A stretch of 61,202 nucleotides of DNA, filler included, from Squatina squatina (taxonomy: Eukaryota), in NCBI GenBank assembly GCA_031763465.1. It is 4 parts of 4 records of this genome, joined end to end, with 100 filler letters (N's around TTAATTAATTAA, not from the genome) between each part and the next. Parts side by side here need not be neighbours in the genome. Positions count along the whole stretch, not along the records: positions 42,483 to 61,202 come from JARFOE010000004.1; 3 more parts are not named here. One strand, 5' to 3'. Under the pieces are notes generated by a model. That model was not told the DNA's origin, did no database searches, and worked only from the letters and a program-made list of their open reading frames with translations. How positions within the stretch are numbered: the first letter of the stretch is position 1; each line of letters starts with the position of its first letter. Of this stretch, positions 18,471 to 56,500 are shown one piece after another. Position numbers and translations under genes: made by a program.

Positions 18471-21320
18471 GTTACCTGAATATGCACGGCAGTCATAACA
18501 ACATAGAGAAATTGAGAGGACAAATATATAAATAAATGGGTGTGATCTGTTAGCCATTACAGAGACATGGTTGCAATGTGACCAAGACTGAGAACTGGAT
18601 ATTCAGCTTTATTTGACATTTCAGAAGGATAGGCAGAAAGGAAAAGGAGGTGGTGTAGCTCTCTCAATAAAGGATGAAATGGGCACAGTAGTGATAAATG
18701 GTATTGGCTCACAAGGTCAAGATGTAGAATTCATTTGGATGGATGTCAGAAAGAACAGTGGAAAGTTGACACCAGTGGGAGTAGTCTATAGGCCCCCTTA
18801 CAGTAGTTACAGTGCAGAACAGAGTATAAATCAAGAAGTAATGAGTGTTTGTAAAAAGGGTACTAAAATAATCATGGGCCATTTTAATCTTCATGTACAT
18901 TGGACAAATCCAATTGACAAAGGATGCCTTGAGGATGAATTCATAGTGTTTCTTCGAGCAATATGTAAGAGCAGGGAACAGGCTATTTTAGATCTGGCAA
19001 TGTGCAATGACACAGGATTAATCAATCATCTCATAGGAAAAGATCCTCTAGGAAACAGTAATCATAACATAATAGAATTTAACATTCAGTTTGAGAGTGA
19101 GAAACTTGTGTCTGAAACTACTGTATGAAACTTAATTAAGAGCAATTACAAATGAATGAGCAGAGAGTTGGCTAAAATGGACTAGTAAAATAGCTAAGAA
19201 GATATTCCATGAATCTCCGCAAATATATACTCCAGTGAGGAAGAAAGACTCTAAGAAAAGGATAAACCAACTATGGCTCACTAAGGAAGTTAAGGAAGGT
19301 ATTAAATTGAAAGAAAAGGCTTACAATTTGGCAAAGATTAGTGGTAAGTCCGAGGTTTGGGATAATTTTAAAAGCCAGCAAAGAATAACTCAAAATTATA
19401 AAGATGGACAAAATAGATTGAGAGTAAACTAACAAGAAATATAAAAACTGAGAGGAAGAGCTTATATATATATATATAAAAAGTAAGAGATTAGCTAAAG
19501 TAGACATTGGTCGCTTAGACGATGAGACTGGGGAAGCAATAATGGGAAACAAGGAAATGGCAGATGCGTTGAACAGATATTTTGTATCTGTCTTCACAGT
19601 ACAAGCCCCTAAAATCATTGCAATAATTGTGGAACATCAAGGAGCAAAACGGAGGGAGGAACTAAAAACAACTATCACTATCACTGGAAAAGAAGTACTG
19701 GACAAACTAATGGGACTGAAGGTTGATAAGTCCCCTGGACCTGATGGCTTGCATCCTAGGATCTTAAAACAAGTGGCTACAGAGATACAGACTGTATTGG
19801 TAGTAATTTTCCAGAATTGCCTAGTTTCTGGATAATTCCCAGATGATTGGAAAACCACAAATGTAACGCCTTTATTCAAAAATGGAGGGAGATGGAAAGC
19901 AGATAACGATAGGCCAGATAGCCTAACACCTGTCATTGCGTAAATGCTGGAATCCATTATTAAGGAAGTAGTAGCAGGACATTTAGAAACTCATAATGAA
20001 ATCAAGCAGAGGCAGCATGGTTTTTTGAAAGGGATATCATATTTGAAAAATGTATTAGTTATTTGAGGAAGTTTCAAGCAGGGTGGATAAAGGGGAAGCA
20101 GTAGATGTAGTGCATTTCAATTTCCAACAGGCATTCGATAAGGTACCACATAAAAGGTTACAGCACAAGATGAGAGCTAATGGTGTTGGGGGTATTATAT
20201 TAGCATGGATAGAGGATTGACTAATTAGCAGAAAACAGAATCGGGTGAAAAGGGTCATTTTATGGATGGCAATCTGTAACTATTGGGGTATCACCGAGAT
20301 CAGTGCTGGAGCTGCAACTATTTACAATATGTATTAATGACTTGTATGAAGGAAGCGAGTGTATTTCAGCCAAATTTGCTGATGACATAAAGTTAGCTGG
20401 GATAGTAAGGTGTGAGGAGGACACAAAGTAAGGTGTGAGGAGGACACAAAGTGTCTGCAAAGAGACATAGATAGGTTAAGTGAGTGGACAAAAAATTGCC
20501 AGCTGGAGTATAATGTGGGAAAGTGAGGTTCACCACTTTGGTAGGAAAAATGGAAAAGCAAAATATTATTTAAATGGGTAAAGAGTAAAGAATTCTGTAG
20601 CAGAGAGGGATTTGGGGGTCCTCGTACATGGACACATAAAGTTAGCATGTATGCACACCAGGTAATTGGGAAGACAAATGGAATGTTAGACTTTATTGCA
20701 AGGGTAATGGAGTGCAACAATAAGGACATCTTGCGACAACTGTACAGGGCACTGGTGGGACACCACCTAGAGTGCTGCGTACAGGTTTGGTCCCCTCCTT
20801 TAAGGAAGGATATACATGCATGGGAGGAAGCTCAGAGAAGGTTCACAACATTGATACCAAGTATGGAAGGGTTGTCTTATGAGGAAAGGTTGAGCAGGTT
20901 GGGCCTATACTCACTGGAGTTTAGAAGAATGAGAGGAGATCTTATTGAAACATATAAAATTCTGCGGAGGCTTTAGGGGTAAATGCTAAGAGGATGTTTC
21001 CCCTCATCGGGGAATCTAGAACTCAGTGGCAGTTTTGGAATACGAGGTGGCCCATTGAAGGAGTTGAGGAGGATTTTTTTCTCTCAGGTAGTTGTGTGTC
21101 TTTGGAATTCTTTACCCCAGAGAGCTGTTGAGGCTGAGTCATTGAATATAATCAAGGCTGAGATGGACAGGCATTTGATCAGCAAGGGAATCAAAGAATA
21201 TGGGGAACAGGCAGGAAAGGGGAGTTGAGGCGATAATCAGATCAGCCATGGTATCATTGAATGGTAGAGCAAGCTGGAAGGGCCGAATGGCCTACTCCTG
21301 CTCCTATTTCTTATCTTCTG
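18471..21320 (+). mobile_element. CR1 LINE ORF2 (endonuclease + RT), decayed, with 3' UTR
   Basis: KGGGVAL, GVVYRPP, IMGHFN, ILDLAMCN, LGNSNHN (APE endonuclease); KSPGPDGLHPRILK; KFADD; LECCVQVWSP; many stops and frameshifts; 23-bp tandem duplication at ~20405-20450. Confidence 0.93.
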
Positions 21321-22600: not shown

Positions 22601-24032
22601 GAATCCATACATGCTGCAAGCGTTCGCATTTGAGATAGTTGTTCTCCAAAGCCTTTGTTCTGATTAATTACAACATTGAATTTATCCATAACATTTTCTA
22701 AACCTTCTGTCAGTTCTTTTTATGAAATCGGGGATTCTGCTCTTTGTGCTTTATCATCTCATGTCTGCCCAATGATCCCTTTAATTGCACGCACATTGTT
22801 TCATGCTCCCACAATGTCTCTGTCAATTGATGGAAATTTCATTCCGAATTGCGCTTCATAAATTACTGTTTAATTTTTCTGAGAAGAGCACAGTAAAAAT
22901 CTGCACACTTTTGGCTGCATAATTCGGAAGGCAAGAATGCAGATTAGGAAATAGTATACATGGCTTCATGGGTCCGGTTAATGGTAAGTCCGTTTACAGA
23001 TCCTTCCAGGAGATGGACACATTCAGTCTGATTTTCTCCTCGGTCTCACAGATCATAGTTTTGTTCGAGTCGATGTCTGACACTTGCGACATTATCCACC
23101 TCAACGAACGTGTCCAGTGGCCTCTGCTGACGAGGATAAAACTCCACAGTGTCGAGCAGAAATAATTTCCACCGCATTTACTGTGCAAAACACAGACTGC
23201 AGGGACAAGAGACTCAGGATACTCCTGAATCCCCGCCCCTGAAAACCAAGTTCAACTCTGATGAAGAGCAGAAATTCCATTGTAGCTATTTTGGAGAGCA
23301 CGGAATCTGCATAGCAGCATTTATCAATATTCAACATACATATTTTATAGAATTTATAACTCAGAAATAAGCCATTCAACCAAAGTTGTGTTTGCCGGTG
23401 ATTATGCTCCACACGAGCCTCCTCCCATCGTGTTTCATGTAATCCTATTAGCGTTGCATTCTATTCCGTTTTGTTTTCCCTCACGTGCTTGCCCTGAAAT
23501 ACTCCTTGTGATAGCGACGTCCACAGCGCCACCATTCCCTGGTAAATTAAGTTTCTCCTGAATTGCCCACTGAATTTATTTGTGATTGTCTTATATTTAT
23601 TGCATTTAGCTTCGGTCAAATTCAGTCTTGACGCTTAAAAAACATACAAATGCCCCACTGGATGTTTTTTTTAAACAGAAGCTATGGGTTAATTACTTTT
23701 TGGCTATGAAAACCATTGAGGGTGGCGGTGTTCAGTTCCAGAGTTCTTGAATGAAAGCATCAAAAAAATGATCTGAAAAATAATAGACATCATGATCATT
23801 TCCTGACTGCTTGGGGTGGTGCTCAGAACACACCATGTCTGTCCATGCAGCCCATGAGTCTATTAATGACGGATTAACTTGACTAACCTTGTCCTAAATA
23901 GAGCCTCCTGCAACATTTTAATATTGCAGAATCTTAGCTGTTATCTATGTAAATTTCATGAACTTTGACAAATTTTAACTGAAGTTGTTCGGATTATCAG
24001 AGTCTTCCCACATGGTTACCTCTGTCTACAAG

Positions 24033-24985
24033 AGGCACTGAAGGAGCACCTTACTGCCGGTGGGGTAGTACTGAGGGAGCGCTGGAATAATGGAGGGGTA
24101 GTACTGAGGGAGCGCTGGAATAATGGAGGGGTAGTACTGAGGGAGCGATGCACTGTCGGTGGGGTAGTACTGAGGGAGCGCTGCAATGATGGAGTGGTAG
24201 TACTGAGGGAGTGCTTCAATGATGGAGGGGTCGCACTGAGGGAGCGCTGCAATGATGGAGGGGTAGCACTGAGGGAGGGATGCACTGTCGGTGGGGTAGT
24301 ACTGAGGGAGCGATGCACTGTCGGTGGGGTAGTACTGAGGGAGCGCTGCACTGTCGGTGGGGTAGTACTAAGGGAGCGCTGCACTGTCGGTGGGGTAGTA
24401 CTGAGGGAGCGCTGCAATAATGGAGGGGTAGTACTGAAGGAGCGATGCACTGTCGGTGGGGTAATACTGGGGGAGCGCTGCACTGTCGGTGGGGTAGTAC
24501 TGAGGGAGCACTGCAATAATGGAGAGGTAGTACTGAGGGAGCGCTGCAATGTTGGAGGGGTAGTACTGAGGGAGCGCTGCACTGTCCGTGGGGTAGTACT
24601 GAGGGAGCATTGCACTGTCGGAGGGCGAGTACTGAGGGAGTGCTGCACTGTTGGTGGGGTAGTACTGAGGGAGCGCAGCACTCTCAGAGGAGCGGAAATG
24701 AAGGAGCGATGAATTGTCAGAGTAGCAGAACGGAGGGAGCGCTGCACTGTCAGAGTAGCAGTACAGGGGGAGCATTGTACTGTCGGAGGGGCAGTCCGGG
24801 TGGAGCGCCACACTGTCGTAGCGGAAGTACTGACGGAACATTGCACTATCGGAGGGGCAGTGCTGAGGAGTGCTGCACTCTCGGAGGGTCACTATTGAGA
24901 GAGCATTGAACCGTCGCAGGCGAAGTACTGAGGCAGCACTGCACTGTCTGAGCAGCGGAACTGAGGCGATGCTGCACTGCCGGAG
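24033..24985 (+). repeat. 33-bp minisatellite (~29 units) derived from a DeuSINE internal segment
   Basis: Units GTAGTACTGAGGGAGCGCTGCACTGTCGGTGGG and variant GTAGTACTGAGGGAGCGCTGCAATAATGGAGGG; runs directly into a SINE body at ~24985. Confidence 0.95.
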
Positions 24986-37230: not shown

Positions 37231-37287
37231 AAGCAAGACACTTTCTGCATTCTCTCACAGGAATTAGGTTGCACAACTATGACATAC

Positions 37288-37640
37288 CATTCGAAAATCA
37301 TCCTCAAATTTGTAGGCACCACCTCCTGTGGCACACATAGTGGTGTGTAAACTAGAGAAATTTTTGTCTCTACCCATTTGGATGAATTTAGGCATGGAAT
37401 GCGTTGGAAAGCGAATAAAATGCAAGTTCCCTTTGCGTCCACACATGATCAAGTTCTTTAGCTCCAGGTGCACATCCCGGATCCCTGTTTTTCCATAAGC
37501 TATGTTAGAGGTCAGGTACTTCCGAATGCTCTTCAGGTTCTCCACTTCCTCCTGTTCTTCTTCAGCTGTGATGTCTTTTGGCTCAAAATACACAAGTTTG
37601 ACAAGGGTTCCACCAATATCCATTCCAAACCAAGGGAACG
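37288..37640 (-). CDS. PANK1: Pantothenate kinase 1, coding exon (353 bp)
   Basis: AG/GT bounded; [63 protein letters not shown]...[16 protein letters not shown], including the DIGGT ATP-binding motif. Confidence 0.97.
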
Positions 37641-38699
37641 CTAGGAGGGAGAAAGAAAGTCAGTATTATGTGCATCTGTGTCAGTTGTACATTGTTGTTT
37701 AATTTATGCTGTGAGTAGCATCAGACACTCAAAATCCATCAGACATTTTCAAATCTAAATCAGAAGCAATATCATCAATAAATATTTACTTTTCAACTGA
37801 TCAGTGGGAACGAAGTGTTTTTTTTTCATAAAACAGGAACCAATTCTTAAAGCATACAGGTCACTGTTGGAGAGTTACCATCATGTCTCGAAACTGGATT
37901 CATCAGTACCTGGTACAAAGGGAATCCACCATATTACATGCATATGCCATGACAAAAAATGCATCGTCATCTTCCAGATTCTTTTTCCTTCTTAAAACCG
38001 CAACGATCACCCTTTAAACATTTGTTGTATCCGAGTTCAGTAAATAAGTAATTGTTGTAAATATCTGACCTTTTATTAAAATAAACTATTTGTCTAACCT
38101 TTTGTTATTATGCCAACTAAAATTAAGCTGGGGCACTCCAGTGCAATGTTTTAGCTGACTGAAATGACCCCAAATATAGAAGCAGAATACTGTTTTGTGT
38201 CACAATATTTTGGGCAAATACTGAGAGATAAGCAAAGGTACATTGTAAAACTTTTAAAATTTATTTTTTTTGGGTCAATTTAAAAATTTAAATTGTGAAG
38301 CTTAACTCATTGGTCTTCACATTTCAAAATGGAAGTGGAGAAATCCGAGGGTGCAGTTTGCATGTTTGGCAGTCTTGGATTAAGTATTTTAGAATAGTTC
38401 AAACACGAGTAAATAACTGAAGATATCATTTTCGTTTAACTGGTGCATTCAAAAAGCTCAGATAAAAATCTTTAGTTCCCTCCAAAGTTTGGTTTTACAT
38501 TAGTTGCTTCTGACAATGACATTATGAACTTTGATTTTGACCAGAGAAGCTGGGATTGTTCTCCTTAGAGCAGAGAAGNNNNNNNNNNNNNNNNNNNNNN
38601 NNNNNNNNNNNNNNNNNNNNNNNNNNNNNNNNNNNNNNNNNNNNNNNNNNNNNNNNNNNNNNNNNNNNNNNNNNNNNNCTTGCCATTGGACCATGACCT

Positions 38700-42482: not shown

Positions 42483-44283
42483 GGAAGTATCCCTGATTTC
42501 CCACATAGTGCAGGAGGAGCATACCACGGGGCTGAGCTGCGCTTCCATGACTTACCCTTGAATTAAATAAAATCCAATCCCCAATATAAGAAAATCTTAA
42601 TTTTCTAAACTGAACCCTTAACTTAAAGTACTGATGCAAATACAGTATCAAGATACAAGTACAGATGCAAGTATCAGCCAGGTCTCCCACACTTGCTCAT
42701 TATCCAATGGCATCTGCTGGAAAGTTGGTCCATGTAGACTACTTATAAATACAGGATTCAACTTAGCTTTGAGGCTGCCATGCTGCAGCAACCTGCCAAG
42801 ACATTGTCTCTCATACATAAAGAATGTCTACTTATGAGGTTGTGAAAGTCTGCTGGCACCTCTGGAATCATATCCCAACCTCAGCCTGCTCCCAGAAAGG
42901 AAGAGAGAACACTTGGAAAAAATATGTGCAATTATCACACCTCTGCAAGAACCATAGTTGGCCCCTAATGCAAACAGGTAATGAGGTACTTAACCACCCA
43001 TAAGTTAACAAACAAAAACTGCACAACAAGAAATGGGAACTATGTCACAGAGGTGAGGCTCAAGTTTATTTTGGTTACAAGACAGGCTGCAAGCCTTGGG
43101 GAACATTTTGCACAATCATAATTTTCGATCAATTAATAGAAAAGTACAGCTGTACTAGTCTGAGCTCATATATTCTGCCATCAGTAATCATGTGCCGTTA
43201 AGTATGTCAGCAAGCCTGCTGATAATGTCACAAAGCATTTTGTTTCTCCACAAAAATGATTAACCTAGACAATCAGGATTCTGAGAATGTACCATGCTGA
43301 GAGACTGAATGACTACAGTACATTCTGCCATGAAGGAAATTATATTTACCTGGGGCTGTGATAGAACTGTAGTTGCGCTTGACTCATGACAAGAACCAAC
43401 AGTCAATCAGGAATTTAGATGCACAGGGATCAAAATGGTCTGAATGTAGCTAAGTCTGCCATGGGGTCATCTCTGGAGATGACTCTGTGGTCAGGGCTGA
43501 TATATCTTGTGATGAGATTGCAGTTAAGCAGAGGGAAAGGTTGGCAGAGGTTATGGACATTCAGAAGGTATAGTTCCTCCATGCTTAGGACCTCTGGCTT
43601 CAGGGGATACATCGCAGATGCCAACAGAGTCGATATGACATGACAACATGTATTAGACCCCCACTCTGCAGCTCTTTGAGGCAGCACATCATGACCAGAA
43701 ATGTTATACAGGGAAAGAATAATGGAAGGGAAATCACGCTTTGCTGCACCTTCTGGTGGTCTATAACAGAATGGAATTGGCAAAGGCCTGGGAGCAGGTC
43801 TCCTGTTGTGTTTAGTACATCACGCTACAGGTGGGAAGTGAAACATGTTTTTCAGTACATTGGGATATTTGAAATGACACAGACATAGGCATGCAACTCA
43901 GATTTATAAAATGGGACAGGCTCAGAGCTGCCTGGCCTGTGAACTTCCCACCCATCAATGAACTTTGGCTCCAACCCTGCCTATAGCTCATAAAACTGAA
44001 TTCAAGCACATCCTTCACATTGTGCCATTTCTAGTCAGCAAAGTCCATGCACTTTTCATCCTATTGTTATTGGCCCAAGTGCTCTGCTCAATGAGAAAAA
44101 CTGGAATCCATTGACTATAGTGCAGTCGTTGTATGTTTGAGCACTGGCCACCCACATAAGGTCGTTGCCTAACTTATTCATTTNNNNNNNNNNNNNNNNN
44201 NNNNNNNNNNNNNNNNNNNNNNNNNNNNNNNNNNNNNNNNNNNNNNNNNNNNNNNNNNNNNNNNNNNNNNNNNNNNNNNNNNN

Positions 44284-45398
44284 TCGCAACTGGCCCTTGA
44301 GGTTACTTATTTGTCAATTAAGGGAGCATCGTCAAAACTATTTACAACAGACGTCCCGGTGTTGAACAGAGTGGCAGCATCGTTGATCAAGCCATGTTTC
44401 CTCCTCTCGGGTCCATTGGTCTCCTTGGGGTCGACCTGGGATGTTTTGAACTCCCCATAGTCGAGTTCAAAGAACTGCTGGTACATATCGTGGAGCAGTG
44501 CTGCGTATAAGCGTCCAGTCTTTTCGGGACACCAGGATGGTAACTGGACCTGGGTCATGTTCAATACCATTGTGGCCACTTCGTAATGGACCTTGTGGAA
44601 CATTACTTTTTGTGTTGGTATCAACACTCGACTGTTCTCGGGGCCGGAGGTGGTGCGGGGGCAGTGAGTCTCGTCATTCCTCACCGGTCGGGGAGTGAGG
44701 TGTCGTTCAATCTTCTGTGTCAGGATCTCAGTGGCATTTACTACCCCCAGGGGATTAAATGCAATGCATGTCATCTTACTCCTGTGCCAGCCCATATCGT
44801 TTCCCTCATCCTGCCACTGTCGGTGCAATGCTATGGAAACCATAATGGGACAAACTGGCAAGGACCCCCAAATGCATATGTAAGTCCCCTGTTCTTCTGT
44901 CTAACACTTATTCCAGCACAGTTGTGCTCCCTCCTAGTGTAATGGTCCGATAACTGTCATTCCCTAACATTTCCCAGGCTGCAGTCTTGTTTGCCTTATA
45001 GGCGCCCAGCTTTCGGAGCCACCACCATCTGTCCTGGCGAATGTCGCCGTTGCAGCACAGGCAGACTTTTCTGCCGTCGGCTACTATCAGCCTTCGCGCG
45101 ATCACTCGCACCCTGGGGCAGTTGACAGAGGCCTCCCTGAATGTGAACTAAATTGCACTACCCATAAAACTGGTGGAATTTGAGCCTACCCACCCGGCCA
45201 TCGTCCGCTATGGGCCAGTACGGTCTGTCTGGCGAGTCGCCCCGCACCTCCTGCAGTGACCATGGGGCCGTAACCTGCGCTGCAGCCGAATACCAGTGAA
45301 CTTTCGGTGTCGCCCCTTCGGGAATGTCCATAAAATGGGAAGTTGGTGAGGAAGATCCAGAGTGCTTTTATTGCTTTTTGTCGACTTGGTGTCTTCAT
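44284..45398 (-). pseudogene. env: ERV env (partial): signal-like leader, Ig-like segment, F2-like segment, furin site, fusion peptide, start of heptad repeat
   Basis: Acceptor TTTTTCTCTTTCTTGGTTATCCAG then AACC-ATG (45398) MKTPSRQKAIKALWIFLTNFPFYGHS; RRKH (44405-44394) then GLINDAATLFNTGTSVVNSFD; QISNLKGQLR after a frameshift. Confidence 0.75.
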
Positions 45399-45402
45399 GG
45401 TT

Positions 45403-45428
45403 CTGGATAACCAAGAAAGAGAAAAATG
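45403..45428 (-). promoter_or_regulatory. env splice acceptor
   Basis: Polypyrimidine tract + CAG ending at 45403, 4 nt before an ATG with A at -3. Confidence 0.7.
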
Positions 45429-45519
45429 TTGTCCTCGTGTCGGCTTCCACTAGAAGTGGGTGCCGTCCCAGCAGCACACCCACCAATGGAGGAAACTCCG
45501 TCCTCTGGTGCTCCCTTGC

Positions 45520-48145
45520 CTGCTCTCCCCCAAACAGCATTCCCTCCCTTAAGGTGAACTCGTCTCCCCCAAAGGTGCCTTGGCTCGCTGTCCTGCCTGC
45601 TTGGCTGAAATGGCTTCCTTAAACTGGGGTCTCCCTTTTGCAATGACCGGAGGTCTGTGGCTAAAATTATCCCTGGGGGCGGTACCTGCCCTTGCAGCAC
45701 GTCAATGGGGGCAGTGGTGGGGTCTGTGGCAGAAGGATCCCACTCCTCCCCCGTGCGTGCCCCTTCCTTTGCCAGGTCGTCGGCTCGGGCATTACCTTCC
45801 CACCTTGGCTCAAGTTTCGTGGGTGCCCTGACTTTGTGAATGTAATAACCCAGCCCTCCGTGTTCTACCTCCAGGATTTTCTTTAGGAGCGGGGATGTTG
45901 TTAGTGGTCCCACGTCCACGGACGTGAATCCCCGTCTACACCATAATGCCAGATACTCCGTGCAGGAGTTGCACGTAAACAGGGAGTCTGAGCAGCTGGT
46001 GCAGGGTGTTGGGAAAAGTTCACGGTGGGTGACCACGTACGCGACTGAGGCCAGCTCAGTGTGTTGAGCGCCCATCTGAGCTGGGAGTTTAATTGCCCTG
46101 GACACTCCGGTCTGAGGGTCATAAATTCCGCAGGCAGTGAGCCTCTTCCCATCCACTACGAAGCTCGACACATCGACGTATATGTCCCATACCCCGGGAC
46201 ATAATCCTGCTTTAAAACCCAGATCATGATTCCACACTCCCTTCACTGTACACGTGAGTGGGTCTCCTATGTACAACAAATTTAAAGCTAGCCGGGGTTC
46301 CGCGAGTACCTGGACTCGGATGAGGTATTGAGCCAAGAGCAGGATCCAGCTCGTTATGTGTGCACTGCTCACGGTACCATCCTTGATCCGCCCTTCCAAC
46401 AACATTGCAGTCCGAGTGTGGTTGGTGAGCAGGGTGATGGAGGAAAGGCCCGTGAATGGTTAAAAGTGCTTGACTGTCTAGTAAGTGGCTCGGAGGCGCC
46501 GTTCAAAGTTCGAGTAAGTCTTCTCGACTCCTGTGACAACCTAAGATGTGTATACGATCGGACTCAACTTGCTGTGGCGTTCCTGCATCAGCACCGGTCC
46601 TAAGCTGTCCTCACTTGCAACCGCCTCCAAGATGAACTCATCGTTCTCAGTAATGGCTCCCAGGGCTGGGGCGCTCTTCAGGTCGCGTTTCAATTGCTCG
46701 AACATGTCCTGGCAGGACATATCCCATTCCCAGGCGACACCTTTATGCAGAAGGCGGAGCAGGGGTGCGACTGTCGCCGCATAGCCCTCGATGAAGTCCC
46801 GGCATTACCCGGTCAGCCCCAGGAAGGACCTAATCCCTGGCACATCCCTGGGTACGGGCAACTGCTGTACCGTTTCCCGTCAGGTGTCGTCAATGGCTCT
46901 CGCCCCTCCCCGTAATGTCAGCCCCAGGAATTTCACCGCCCGCTGACCTACTTGGCCTTCTGAGGGTTCACGCTCAACCCACTCTGGTAAAGCAATTCCA
47001 GCAGCTCCTCCAGCAATCACACATGCTCCTCCTCATCGTCTGTGAACAACAGGCGATCATCCACATACTGCACCAGCTGAGCAGGCTTGCTGAACGGCTT
47101 TAACGCGTTCACCATACTCTGGTGAAATATGGACAGACTGTTGTGGAAGCCTAGTGGAAGGCAAGTCCACGTACACTGTTGGCCCTGGAAAGTAAACGCA
47201 AATTTGTACTGGTATTCTCGGCACAACGGGATGGACCAAAATCCCGTAGTGATATCCTGTACCGAGAAGACCGTGGCAGTGTTGGGGAGGGTCCCTATCA
47301 AATCGGCCAAGAGGGCCACGGTGGGGGCTCAAGCTGGGAGGTTCTTATTCAGGACTCGATAGTCCACGGTTGCTAACCACGAGCCGTGCGGTTTTCAGAC
47401 CGGCCACAGAGAGGAGTTGACGTGGGTCGCGATCGGACTGAGATCCCCCTGCCTGGTCAGGGACTCTGGGGCAATGGGCAAATCTGCTTTGGCCTCTCGG
47501 GGGGAAATATACTGCCGGATAGGTCGGGACATCGGGTCCCCCTCTATCCGGACCTCCACCTCGGTCATTTGCCCACAATCGTGCTTGTGTGTGGTGAATG
47601 CACCGAGGTGTCACCTGAGGACACTGTGGAACGCGGGCGGTGGGGGGCAGTCCATGATCATGGCTTCCAGTTTGTACTTGGTCTGGGGCTGCATCGTACA
47701 CACTAGCCCTTCCCCCCACCCCCTGTTCCCTTGGGATTACAGTCACTGTGCGATTCTTCCGTCCTGTCCTGCTGCCCTAAAGGCAGTTGTTCTGCAGGTG
47801 GAGTATGATCCAGTGGGCCAGCAGAAAATCGGCCCCGCTCACCCCTGACCTGCAGTGTCTCCACTGGACCAAGATGGTTTTCCACCTGTGTAATTCCCCT
47901 AACTTGATGCGCAGTGGCTTGGACACGACACCAGCCTGCTCGTCACCCGTGAACCCTGCCAAAAGCTACGGGGTCCCGCTCGACCGAGGGAAGTTCTCGG
48001 GGTCCAGATCGTGGATCACCATGCTCAATGCCGCGGTGTCGATCAGGTAATCCCCAATATGTCCATTTCCCTCCATCTCTACACAGGGGCGATCCCACCT
48101 GTCGTAGTAGATGTGGCAGAGCAGAACAGGCTTTGTTGAGCCCAG
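45520..48145 (-). pseudogene. pol: ERV pro-pol: protease, RT, tether, RNase H; integrase almost entirely deleted
   Basis: YLIDTAA (48049-48029) and GADFL; VDYRVLN, FWSIPL, YKFAFTFQGQQCTWTCLPLGFHNS, QYVDD (YVDD 47067-47056); VSSAHITSWILLL tether end; RNase H IYVDVSS / AQHTEL / SDSLF / GNARADDLAK. Confidence 0.93.
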
Positions 48146-50503
48146 TCACTGGGGTGGTGTCTGGGATGGAGAGTTTTGTGTGTGGGATGTGGTGGCTGGG
48201 CAAACGGTCACAATGGCGGCCTTTTCCTACCCAAAGCTTTCCTTCATGTCCAGCAGGATCTCGGCTATCCTCACCTGCTGATCCAGCGGTGGTACCCTGG
48301 GGATCTCTTTCTCCACCCTTTTACCTGAGGTTTTTCGGTTTGCATCTTTATTGGGTGGTGTCCCGGCATTCCAGCTGCATATGCCTGGGCTTGCCACACC
48401 TGAAGCACACCACGACCATCCCTGTCTTACCCTCCTGCCTCCATTCCCGTTTCTTTTCCACCCCTGTATACCGAATACAGGGGCGGGGATCGGGACCTGG
48501 CCGGCCTGTTGAGCTGTAGACACCGTCTCGACAACCACATCGCCTGTCGTTTGCGCTGATGTGGTGCTGCAGAGCGTGGGCTTTGGTTTCGGGGATGCGT
48601 AACCTTGGATAGGTTGGATGGTAAAGTGTAGGTTAGTTTGGGTTTCCTGGCTGTGTGACTACCTGTACTGGGTGAATCGGAGCCGCCGACACGTAGGTTG
48701 GTGCTGTGACTCCCTGCGGTGGGGGTTGTACTGCGCCTGGGATGCAATAGAGTGCCATCAGTGGGCCGGCCTGGCCAGGCATGTACACCGGAGATTGTGC
48801 GGCCCCTGGTACAGGCACGCCGGCTGCGGCCTGGGGTGGAATTCCTCCACCGTTTCCAAGCTCGGGCTTGGGAGTGGCATCAGTGATGGCAAGGGTTTGG
48901 CAGGCGAGTCCGGGTCTTCAGAGCACCTCCGCATCAGTGTGAGTGATGTTCGAGGGTTAAAACCATGTTTGTGCTGACTTGGAGTGCTCAGGCAAACATT
49001 GAGACACGAGCATCCGGAGCCACTGGCTTCGGTCAGCTGGTCTTAGGTCTTGCCACCTCGGATTGTGTCCGCCGAAGCACTGTGAGTACACAGCCCACAA
49101 GCAGCTCGCAAAAATATCTGGGGTTTCAGTGCGCATTTAGTGAGTGGCATCGACTTGGGCCAATGGGCTGCCAATGTCTAAGCCCATGGCTCTTCGAATC
49201 TGTGCGTGGAGATCAAGAGTGTGAACTCCAGGTGCACGGATATGTGGAAGTAGTCGCTGGTGGATCGTGTCCTCCATAGAGAGCCGCAACATTTTGTTGT
49301 GCTCCTCTGTATTGCACGAATGGACATCAGCCAGCTGACTAATGCGGTCAAAATGTACCAGCAGGTCTCCGTTCAACTGGAGCAGCGGGGTCTTGACCAG
49401 TATAGCTTGCAACTGACTGGCGCTGTGGGGAATATGACATTCTCCCAGTAACGGTCCTCTCCCTCCTGCAAGCCCCGGCGGACCATACTGCCTCTGGGTT
49501 ATCGGGCACATGGGCGCCGCTTCGTCTGGGCTCATATCATACTCCGGGGATTCGTCTGAATCTGACTCCGGATTCGGCAGGCCCCAGCCAACATCACTGC
49601 GGGCCTGTCCCACTATTCGCTCCGGACTCCCCCTTGGTTCCGCTGCCCATCTCTCTGTTTCTCCGGGCTCCGGATCACCCTGGGTTTGGCCGCCCATCTC
49701 GCTAGTTGATTTTCCCATACCCTCTTGGCCTGGGGAGCAATCCTGGAATGCGGGGGCCACAGACCGGTTTAAGGTCTGTGACCACCGCTGGGATTTGTGG
49801 GCAATTCAACCACCGGCTTTCACCCCGCCGGTGGTATCCTCGCTGTCGCTGAGCTCATCCGTGTACCCGAGCAGCAGTGCCGCCGGTGCCTTGAGGCAAA
49901 CTATGCCTCTGGCTGTTGACAGGGCGAACTTCAGCTCCCAGTTCTAAGCCATACAATCGCCATGATCCGCAGCCTCGCGTTTTTGCACCTGCATCACGTG
50001 GTTGGCCCCGCCTTATGTCTTGGAGTTGGACTTCCAGCTGAGACACTTTTTTCATGAGCTCCAGATTATCCGCCGTTCATGCCTTCAACTCTTCCTTGCC
50101 CTCTGCCAGTTCAGTGTGGAGCCGGGTAGTTTCTGCCCGCGACTCGAAGGCAAATTGCCTGAGGTCCTGCTCAGCATTATGGAACTTCTCCAAACACTGG
50201 CTACAGACTACATCTCTGGCGATGACCCTGCTGTGTGCGCTGGTCTTCCTCCGTCAGCTCTTCCAGTCACTCTCGGAGCACCTGGTTCTGCATAAAGAGG
50301 CACAGCAGCCACACAGCCTTCCTGCGGGGGCACTTGTGTTCCTGCGAACTCATCCACCGGGCGGCCCCTAACCTTGGGTCCTCAAACCGGCAGATGGTTT
50401 GGAACCACGTACTTACCATGTTAACTTTTGTGTAGGCGTAATCTAGCATACCCTGTTCCAAATCCTTCAGGAGCGTTTGCTCGTCTACGACATCAACATC
50501 CAT
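48146..50503 (-). pseudogene. gag: ERV gag (frameshifted)
   Basis: ATG at 50503 just after the PBS; coiled-coil-like N-terminal region; helical capsid-like region within the 49760-49137 ORF; Pro/Gln-rich linker; CFRCGKPRHMQLEC zinc knuckle at 48407-48366; TGA at 48148-48146. Confidence 0.85.
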
Positions 50504-50517
50504 TTTCTTGCCTTGAG

Positions 50518-50535
50518 GTCCCAGTTGGGTCGCCA
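50518..50535 (-). promoter_or_regulatory. Primer binding site, tRNA-Arg-like
   Basis: TGGCGACCCAACTGGGAC, 9 nt after the LTR-terminal CA; 16/18 match to the complement of a vertebrate tRNA-Arg(CCG) 3' end as recalled (TGGCGACCCAGATGGGAC). Confidence 0.75.
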
Positions 50536-53520: not shown

Positions 53521-56500
53521 CATGTGCGAGCCAATAGAGATCCATCCAGCCTAATCCCACTTTCCAACTCTTGGTCTCGGTTACGGAAAATCAATGCATA
53601 TCCAAGTACCTTTTAACTGTGATGAGAGTTTCTGTCCCACCATCTTTTCAGGCCATGAACTCCAAACGCCCACCACGCTCAGACTGAAAAGTCCCATCAA
53701 CATCCCCACTAATCCTTCAACCAATTACTTTAAATCTCTGCCCCCTGGTTATTAAATGCATTGCTGGGTGAAATAGCTCCTTCCTTTCCACTCTATTTTA
53801 GGATCCTCATAATTTTATACACCTCAATCAAGGCTTAGTTCCACCTCCTCTATTACACAGAAAACAATCCCAGCCTATCCAATCTTTCCTCATCGCTAAA
53901 CTTCTCCATTCTTGGCAACATCCTGGTAAATCTCCTCTGCACCCTCTTCAGTGCAATCACATCCTTCTTGTAATGTGGTGTTCAGATCTGTACACACTGC
54001 TCTAGCTGTGGTCTAACTAGTGTTTTATACAGTTCAAGCATAACGTCCCTGCTCTGATATTCTGGACTTCGGCTAACAAAGGAAGGTAGGCTGCATGTCT
54101 TCATAACCACCTTATCTACTTGTCCTGCTAACTTCAGGGGTCTGTGGCCATGCACTCCAAGGTCCTTCCGTTCCTCTGCACTGCTCAGTGTGCAACCATG
54201 TATTAATTATTTCCTTTCCTTTTTAGCCCTCCTCAAATGCATTGCCTCACACTCCTCCAGACTGAATTATATTTGGCCACATTTCAGCCCAACTAACCAG
54301 TGCATTGGCAGCTTTCGAATCACTGAAATATCTATGTAGCATTGCACTGTGCCTCCTGCCACTGAGACAAATTAGGATCCAACTTGTCACTTCGCAATGA
54401 ATCCCATGGGCTCTTACTTTACTGACCGATCTGTCATGTGGGACCTTGCCAAAAGCCTTGCTAAAACCCAGATAGAATAAATTAAATGCTCTACCCTCAT
54501 CAACCCTCTTTTTTAACTCCTCAAATAGGTGAGTCAGACAGTCAGCAGGAACTATTCCAGAATCTATAACATTTATGAAGATGACAACCAATGCATCCAC
54601 TATTTCCATGGCCACCTCCTTTAATACTCTGGGAAGTAGCTTATCAGGCCCTGGAGATTTATCAGCTTTCAGTCGCAGTAATTTCTCCAGCACTATTTTT
54701 TTTTACTAATAATAATTTCCTTCAATTCCTCCTTCTCACAAAGCCCGTTGTTCCCTCTCATTTCTGGGAGGTTATTTGTGTCCTCTTCCATGAAGACAGA
54801 ACCAAGTATTTTTTTAATTGCTCTGCCATCTCCTTGTTCTTCATTACAAATATTTCATTTCTGACTGCAGAGGACCTACATTATTCTTCACTAAGCTTTT
54901 TCTTTTTACATAATTGTAGAACCTTTCACACTCCACTTTTATGTTCCTTACAAGTTCACTCTCATAATCTATTTTCCCCTCTTAATCAATCTCTTAGTCC
55001 TCCTTTGCTGAATTCAAAACTGCTCCCAATCCTTAGGTTTGCTACTATTTCTAGCAACTTTCTAGGACTCCTCTTTGGATCTAATACTATCCTTAATTTC
55101 TTTTGTTAGCCATGGTTGGGCTGCTTTTCCAGTTGTGTTTTTGCACTGGAAAGCAATGATTAACTGTTCCAATTCATGCATTAATTCCTTAAATGTAACC
55201 CATTGCCTAATCATCCTCGTACCTTTGAATGAATTTCCCCAATCTATCGTAGCCAACTCGCACCTCATACCTATGTCGTTTCATTTCTTTAGATTTAGGA
55301 CTCTAGTGTCGCATTGAACTACGTAATTTGCCATCTTAATGAAGAACTCTATCTTGTTATGGTCAATTCTCCCTAAAGGACCCCACACAATAAGACTATT
55401 AATTAATCTCTTCTCATTGCACAACAGCAAATCCAGGATAGCCTGTTCCCCAGTTGGCTCCTGAAGTTACTGGTCCAAATAACCATCTCGTACAAACCAC
55501 AGGAATTCATCGTCCACAGTATTATTGCTAATTTGATTTTCCCAGTCTCTATGTAGATTAACATCACCCATGAGTACTGTAGTGCACTTTTTACATGAAT
55601 CTCCAATTTCCTATTTACTGCCTTCCCCGACATGACCACTACTGTTTGGAGGCCTACAGACAACTCTCACTAGTGTTTTCTGTCCCTTGGTGCTTCTTGG
55701 CTCCACCCAGACTGACTCGATATCTTGATTTCCTGAGACAATATCCTTTCCCACTGTCTCATCATTCAGTCTCACAAAGGCCCTATATAACTGCATTAAG
55801 ACATCTTTGCTCCTGTACTCAATCCTCTTGTAATCAACGCAACCATACCATTTTCCTTCCCAATTGCTTGCTGCGCCTGATTTTTTAGCTTGAAGTGACT
55901 CATGTACAAGGATACCCAGGCCCCTTTGACCATTGACATTTCCCAATCTCTCGCCTTTTGTGAAATCATCTGCATTTCTGTTTTTCCGATAAATTCGGTA
56001 AATTCACATTTTTCATCCCCATATTCCATCTGCCATGCTCTTGCCCACTCGCTAAGCCTGTCGATATCCTCCTGAAGCACCTTTGCATCCTCATCACATC
56101 TCCCCTTCCCACCGCGTATTGAGTCATCAGCAAATTTGGATATTTTACATTTTGTCCCCTCATCCAAATCATTGATTTTGATTGTGAATAGCTGGAGACC
56201 AAGCAGTGATCCCGATAGTGCCACACGAGTCACAGCCTGCCAACCTGAAAAAGACACGTTTATCCCTACTCTCTGTTTTCTGACTATTAAACGTTTCGCA
56301 ATCGATGCCGGTATATTAGAAACATAGAAACATAGAAAATGGGTGCAGGAGTAGAATATTAGGCCCTTCAAGACTGCACCGCCATTCAATATGATCATGG
56401 CTGATCATCCAACTCAGTGCCTTGTCCCTGCTTTCTCTCCATACCCCATGATCCCTATAGCCACAAGGGCCAAATCTAACTCCCTCTTAAATATAGCCAA

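Follow-up and report, generated by a model that had tools for sequence, protein, structure and literature searches.

Does a decayed endogenous retrovirus (ERV) of Squatina squatina code for an immunoglobulin (Ig) domain at the N-terminus of an F-like Env, and what would such a domain do there? The original prediction, made from the sequence alone, read an Ig-like module between an env leader and an F2-like region and proposed that a captured module acts as receptor-binding unit or immune decoy. We analyzed the window in which it lies, 61,202 nucleotides of GenBank assembly GCA_031763465.1 in four parts joined end to end (Table 1). The quoted peptides are present in its minus strand.

Table 1. 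Features of the provirus, in order of position along the window
Feature	Position	Strand	Basis or remark
Assembly gap	44184..44283	.	N run; rest of env and 3' LTR not seen in window
Degenerate basic cleavage site, fusion-peptide-like segment, start of heptad repeat A	44284..44405	-	Aligns with post-cleavage segment of relatives; gap ends it
F2-like core	44406..44663	-	Common to sister shark Env lineage; by eye also N-terminus of lokiretroviral Env
Linker, Pro/Thr-rich toward end	44664..44813	-	Residue composition
Ig-like strands E-F and possible G strand	44814..44933	-	Profile match E=5.6e-14
End of N-terminal subdomain and Ig-like strands A-D	44938..45195	-	Frameshift near 44937; stop 45150-45148
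env leader (signal-peptide-like) and first part of 48-aa N-terminal subdomain	45186..45398	-	ATG at 45398; best 11-mer hydropathy 1.4
Short integrase remnant	45400..45700	-	Contigs end or diverge at 45489, 45520-45521
Second RNase H	45758..46183	-	Pfam RNase_H E=1.2e-7; best PDB match foamy RNase H, E=8e-5
Tether (degenerate Ty3-like RNase H)	46481..46726	-	Pfam RT_RNaseH_2 E=1.2e-16
Reverse transcriptase (RT), in-frame stops	46960..47601	-	RVT_1 E=1.7e-20; best PDB match foamy RT, E=2.6e-32
Decayed gag region	48200..50504	-	Between PBS-like site and protease
Primer-binding-site (PBS)-like stretch beginning TGG	50518..50535	-	Sequence; just upstream of gag

The env of this copy runs on the minus strand from 45398 to the assembly gap at 44283 and contains three frameshifts and two stops. 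Aligned to natural relatives, it keeps the leader frame until ~45193, continues in a second frame to ~44938 and is in the first frame again from 44933; the last frameshift is near 44320, and the stops are at 45150-45148 and 44903-44901. This copy is unable to make its protein. Its leader piece, ended by the frameshift near 45193, aligns with residues 12-55 of the relative P0013. The piece with strands A-D is identical to P0013 at 35 of 70 residues, and a profile of natural Ig segments matches 45147-44940 with E=8.8e-25. It holds the B-strand Cys (45054), an extra Cys (45063) and a Trp cluster (45027-45019); the strand E-F piece holds another extra Cys (44918), the second stop, the F-strand Cys (44876) and a Cys at 44852. 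The distance between the canonical cysteines is about 59 codons, across the frameshift. Across the six frames of the window, the B-C half-motif has one minus-strand occurrence (45075) and one stray plus-strand occurrence (43724); the F half-motif is found a single time (44894). Six of the last 25 linker residues are Pro or Thr, compared with 7-12 in eight relatives. F1 is missing and the cleavage site is degenerate, with no match to R-x-K/R-R.

Details of the first reading needed correction. The frameshift that it placed near 44905 is near 44937 by alignment to natural relatives; an E-strand-like stretch at 44933-44904 is already in the downstream frame and is followed by the in-frame stop at 44903-44901. 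The second Ig start suggested at 45315-45250 is a frame-mixing artefact: its Cys and Trp come from different frames, and natural relatives follow the leader frame to ~45193, with a 48-aa non-Ig subdomain there.

With X placed at the breaks, the read-through of this copy finds no Ig match in Pfam, nor was one obtained when the window copy was searched by sequence against Pfam and PDB. For the 44307-44900 open reading frame, a word-indexed search found no longer relative among 219 candidates, and the ESM Atlas returned no usable match. Contigs of three public runs from one study (944, 1876 and 1165) cover 30 of 30 bins and are mostly <95% alike; contig depth is not equivalent to copy number. At 44902 almost all of the depth differs from the window sequence, and there is a collapse of coverage at both 44936-44941 and the vicinity of 45150. 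The contig spread and these depths fit a many-copy family with lesions particular to this copy.

A search of 1.84 billion representatives gave 11 matches, from which P0012 was discarded as a spurious cysteine-repeat match; P0013 and P0014 came from a second search. Ten relatives were looked up; all nine named env relatives are from sharks or skates. The N-terminal subdomain, Ig motif, linker and F2-like core share a single frame in P0013 and in the skate gene models P0002 and P0004, and the sawshark gene model P0005 is in a single frame as far as the linker. Leader, Ig and F2, whose shared frame the original prediction asked to test, thus form one open reading frame in P0013, P0002 and P0004 and are broken up in this copy, with its frameshifts and stops. 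Separately, the sawshark gene models P0003 and P0005 join env pieces to Niban-like and zinc-finger genes, which may be an annotation artefact or exonisation.

The Cys, Trp and YxC residues of the proposed domain are conserved in a shared frame in 4/4 relatives, so the test named to refute it, that they never share a frame or are not conserved, came out in its favor. In all four, 61 aa separate the two canonical cysteines, the first of which has a Trp 9-11 residues after it, and further cysteines occur at -3 and -14. In the V-domain register, we take the -3 and -14 slots to lie opposite one another on strands B and E, so a second, B-E cross-strand disulfide is predicted beside the canonical B-F one, and the head probably carries both. 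The full Ig motif, a pattern written after viewing the segments, is found in 4/4 natural segments and in none of 20,000 shuffles of each. Between lineages, identity is 49-64% for the Ig domain, 61-67% for F2 and 39-41% for the linker. Among these relatives we found no natural Ig-lineage protein with a whole F1; the P0002 gene model skips most of it.

Is the domain Ig? All four natural segments match Pfam Ig_3 at E<=10, the best with E=5e-4 over positions 2-74 of the 78 in the profile; its score of 20.9 bits is below the curated cut-off of 30. The proposed HMM check therefore succeeds, below threshold, in the relatives and fails in this copy. A profile of the four segments gave 12 PDB matches (E 0.008-0.33), of which 11 are Ig-superfamily and eight of these CRTAM or CD8-alpha entries (best E=0.008 and 0.02, respectively), with both cysteines and the acidic-x-G-x-Y-x-C motif in register. 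In the ESM Atlas, the three top matches are unnamed clusters and the ten best named matches all belong to the Ig clan (scores 0.91-0.92), an agreement also reached by a third of shuffled control proteins.

Structure predictions agree, at low confidence. The AlphaFold model of P0013 (seven sequences, mean pLDDT 41) is all-beta over residues 82-165, at pLDDT about 52-72. With this model, the best Foldseek rows are V domains, none at E<=0.001 and with rmsd about 13 A. In an unbiased VIA search of 48,161 chains, nearly all of the best 50 rows are Ig domains (Z 5.8-6.7), and a second comparison gave Z up to 7.2; these values are within the tool's background of 7-8. The structural alignments span 75-87 residues, with an rmsd of 2.6-3.5 A and 8-23% identity. 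They draw on residues as early as about 22 and end near 170, which leaves strands A and G uncertain. A BFVD search with the P0013 model gave no match at E<=0.001. The MLV, FeLV and Env-Pb1 heads are not among the fold matches listed, which excludes nothing.

The evidence for an Ig fold is consistent and weak, being below every curated threshold. With the single frame in natural relatives and HMM and fold evidence that agree, the claim of an Ig-type domain between leader and F2-like core stands, and we consider it very probable that the N-terminal domain has an Ig fold, probably of V type. It is unlikely, in our judgment, that no module was captured and that the segment instead duplicates F domain II or is a beta-rich viral domain that only mimics the motif of Ig domains. 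All scores are sub-threshold, the donor gene was not found, and domain II itself has an Ig-superfamily fold according to the available text of PMC11468914, all of which would suit that explanation. Four kinds of search nevertheless point to V- or I-set domains, with Cys, Trp and tyrosine-corner motif in register. As far as the same source goes, domain II consists of separated elements flanking domain I, whereas the Ig-like domain here is continuous and upstream of the F2 start. Where the V-type domain came from is a separate matter. A donor search with residues 14-200 of P0002 yielded no host gene, only four ERV-type proteins among 167 candidates (283-903 aa, shared words). Because no donor gene was found and structural identities are 8-23%, capture from a host gene is unproven.

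The domain sits on a core that is shared with a sister shark Env lineage (P0007, P0008, P0015-P0020 and others), which has the same F2-like core, cleavage site, heptad and transmembrane (TM) segment. For the F2-like core, the profile of the Ig lineage matches that of the sister lineage (A2 vs A3) with probability 99.7 and E=1.5e-25; core, heptad and TM matches of the sister lineage to the Ig lineage have E=5e-21 and 1e-6. Signal peptide, F2, basic cleavage site, fusion peptide, heptad repeats and C-terminal TM are all present in the relatives P0015 and P0002. The F-likeness of the shark core rests on its likeness, by eye, to the start of lokiretroviral F2 and on domain order, and we infer that it is homologous to class Ib fusogens. 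Pfam Fusion_gly (PF00523) matched none of the 18 proteins scanned, and profile A3 found no match in PDB. The full-length P0015 model (pLDDT 30) is too poor to show an F-type three-domain fold; in BFVD, a torovirus spike and an F0 stand at ranks 2 and 3 with E about 0.01, which we treat as a lead only. The core differs from gamma- and alpha-type cores in being F-like, and neither CX6CC nor ISD was matched in P0015, P0002 or P0008.

In both lineages a Pro/Thr-rich linker precedes the F2 start. The sister-lineage head (P0007, P0008, P0015, P0017) is an N-terminal module of 130-135 aa with eight cysteines; P0015 looks full-length and has seven cluster members. Homology between this module and the Ig head, suspected by eye, was rejected at a profile probability of 2%, and the Ig motif is absent from the 8-Cys head. 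In 22 of 23 loki Env proteins from the available supplement of Wang and Han (2020; PMC7947760), the F2 motif starts, by eye, right after the signal peptide, and the remaining one is a fragment; lokiretroviral Envs, which the original prediction asked to survey for the module, thus show no such head in these 22 proteins. The head slot therefore occurs in three states: an Ig-type head, the unrelated 8-Cys head of the sister sharks and, as far as published loki Envs in that supplement go, empty.

What would the head do? With modest confidence, and by analogy with other envelope proteins, we favor the reading that, on the surface subunit of the predicted F-like fusion protein, the probable V-type Ig domain serves as attachment head. 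This is because its position and linker parallel gamma-type Env and heads appear exchanged on one core, and because an F-type fusogen needs an attachment function, which built-in modules meet in foamy Env and coronavirus spike. The head would then be a swappable attachment module on a class Ib fusogen. After furin-type cleavage, the surface subunit would consist of head and F2. Carried by its linker, the head would bind a cell-surface protein or glycan and keep the virion in place during refolding and fusion by the F1-like part. Paramyxovirus F requires a separate attachment protein, and the head would supply the attachment that paramyxoviruses get from it. Loki Envs are bare F, and we know of no way in which they bind cells.

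The N-terminal module carries 2-4 N-glycosylation sequons besides its extra cysteines, and its conservation is near that of F2 rather than hypervariable. These are features one would expect of a structural, disulfide-rich and glycosylated cap that stabilizes the prefusion trimer or shields it, receptors being bound by another part. We think such a cap improbable: loki Envs, in the portion of PMC7947760 available, are headless, and therefore the core needs no cap, and the Pro/Thr linker suggests an independent domain. The immune role named in the original prediction would have the domain engage, as decoy or modulator, a host Ig-superfamily receptor or ligand on lymphocytes instead of serving entry. 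Its best sequence matches are indeed T-cell surface proteins, CRTAM and CD8-alpha, and immune evasion by newly captured heads is discussed in the available part of Hotzel (2024; 10.1101/2024.03.17.585361). Those matches, however, are weak (E 0.008-0.03) and show fold rather than ancestry, and the non-Ig module in the slot of the sister lineage is easier to square with a general attachment slot than with a specific mimic. A decoy is accordingly an unlikely reading.

Several known systems resemble the attachment-head reading in part. As presented in the available sections of Hotzel (2024), gamma-type Envs have a head-linker-core organization with IgV heads that move between Env lineages. The N-terminal IgV-type head, proline-rich linker and Env core found here are like those of gamma-type RBD-C (MLV, FeLV, Env-Pb1) and of Env-Dbi. 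RBD-C is without the B-F disulfide in that text, whereas the head here keeps both canonical cysteines. Env-Dbi is described there with a SIRP-like IgV head, a clear host donor, and a B-F disulfide plus an extra one; unlike it, our head has no donor that we could find. The part of PMC11468914 available to us presents F as a minimal scaffold that takes receptor-binding modules, and groups foamy Env and coronavirus spike in class Ib. The shark Env is like both in having an F scaffold with a built-in receptor-binding module, which in spike is N-terminal, as here. In foamy Env, by the same account, the module sits between the subunits and has its own fold, unlike the extra N-terminal module here. 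From F2 start to basic site is about 85 aa, without an inserted receptor-binding domain.

For an Ig head on an F-like retroviral Env, we found no report in the literature searched, from which subscription papers were mostly absent. No mention of immunoglobulin was found in the accessible portions of PMC12440569, 10.1101/2023.10.26.564294, PMC5512871, PMC10699275 and PMC9040795. Within this literature, the belief that an Ig+F architecture is undescribed thus holds for F-like Env and has to be narrowed, because gamma- and alpha-type Envs with N-terminal IgV heads are known from earlier work: what is new is that an IgV-type head is paired with an F-like core. Capture of an Ig gene that replaces env is also already in print. 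In CrocERV31, according to the portion of PMC4299795 available, a whole host nectin3 mRNA stands in place of env. The shark element is similarly an ERV with a host-type Ig domain, and differs in that one diverged domain is fused in frame to a fusogen.

To which virus does the env belong? Upstream of env on the minus strand, pol and gag are decayed. This copy has no Pfam match to integrase, most of which appears to have been deleted, with a junction at about 45490-45520. A gag CCHC zinc knuckle lies at 48407-48366 (zf-CCHC E=0.055, below cut-off). A stretch at 50200-49950 (-), in the N-terminal gag region, looks coiled-coil-like by eye; one frame of it was scanned and gave no Pfam match. The PBS-like stretch at 50518..50535 presumably resembles a tRNA-Lys site. 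Self-BLAST found no LTR pair within the window.

In a library without snakehead retrovirus (SnRV), the best PDB matches for RT and the second RNase H are foamy (Table 1). Counting by hand over two blocks of RT, together 71 aa, gave SnRV 48, Loki-Ame 36, MuERV-L 34, Loki-Bsp 33 and SFV 31, in a comparison of five published rows without a tree, with blocks chosen after viewing. A foamy-like reading, taken from the PDB RT match, was dropped after this count and the CCHC motif. Foamy viruses have no gag CCHC knuckle in the available text of PMC5210030; because gag here has one, a foamy assignment is argued against.

The lokiretroviral label of the original prediction fared no better. The RT count favors SnRV, and in the table of Wang and Han (2020), as far as that paper was available, none of the five cartilaginous-fish genomes is marked loki-positive; env relatives occur in three of these five species. 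As in the lokiretroviruses of the available parts of PMC7947760, there is an F-like Env in an LTR element and a dual RNase H; the motif at the F2 start, the basic cleavage site, the fusion peptide and the order of the heptads look the same by eye. The dual RNase H is not diagnostic, because it is common to other retroviruses. What differs from lokiretroviruses, on the same parts of that source, is the N-terminal head and an RT closer to SnRV.

By this sequence comparison, the provirus likely belongs to the snakehead-retrovirus clade, whose RT is most like its own by hand count. The clade is known in cartilaginous fish, with CmiERV lineage I of elephant shark a member (PMC4422223, PMC12193657), and some members have a gag zinc finger (PMC4299795), as far as these papers were available. 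An F-like or Ig-headed Env is undescribed for the clade in the available text of PMC4422223 and PMC12193657. An SnRV-related Pol paired with a gamma-type Env is reported in the accessible part of Chen et al. (10.1101/2021.11.23.469661).

A fuller scenario, which we consider possible and doubtful, is that a snakehead-clade retrovirus of early sharks and rays combined an F-type fusogen with a captured host IgV exon (CRTAM/nectin-like or CD8-like) and entered cells via a mimicked Ig-Ig contact, with sister lineages swapping heads. If the captured-IgV reading were true, the Env would be a retroviral parallel to the gain of a head by coronavirus spike. No head, Ig-type head and cysteine-rich head on one scaffold form a natural series in which to test the proposal that class Ib fusogens evolve by taking on modules for receptor binding. 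The shark Env would in addition carry the acquisition of IgV heads past gamma- and alpha-type Envs, and make a third retroviral lineage with an F-like Env, next to foamy and loki viruses.

The sequence beyond the gap (43050-44183) was considered as the F1 of this copy and rejected, having no match to the Env family. Its GC content and CpG o/e are 43% and 0.17, vs 52% and 0.65. On the minus strand it has coding-like fragments and a 129-aa open frame (43430-43819), without a Pfam match. It is possibly another, older element.

Elsewhere in the window, a Pantothenate kinase (Fumble) coding exon lies at 37264-37659 (-) (Pfam E=8.9e-21). The provirus is ~6.5 kb upstream of it on the same strand of the joined stretch, in which parts need not be genome neighbors. 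Possibly the provirus lies in an intron or the 5' region of the Fumble gene, the distance being read across joined parts. At 23938-24897, a 33-nt unit is repeated in tandem about 21-29 times, and both strands of the array have long open frames. Decayed fragments of LINE-type endonuclease and RT are found at 18592-19128 (+) and 55796-56404 (-), and several dispersed repeat families (D3-D17) occur in the window.
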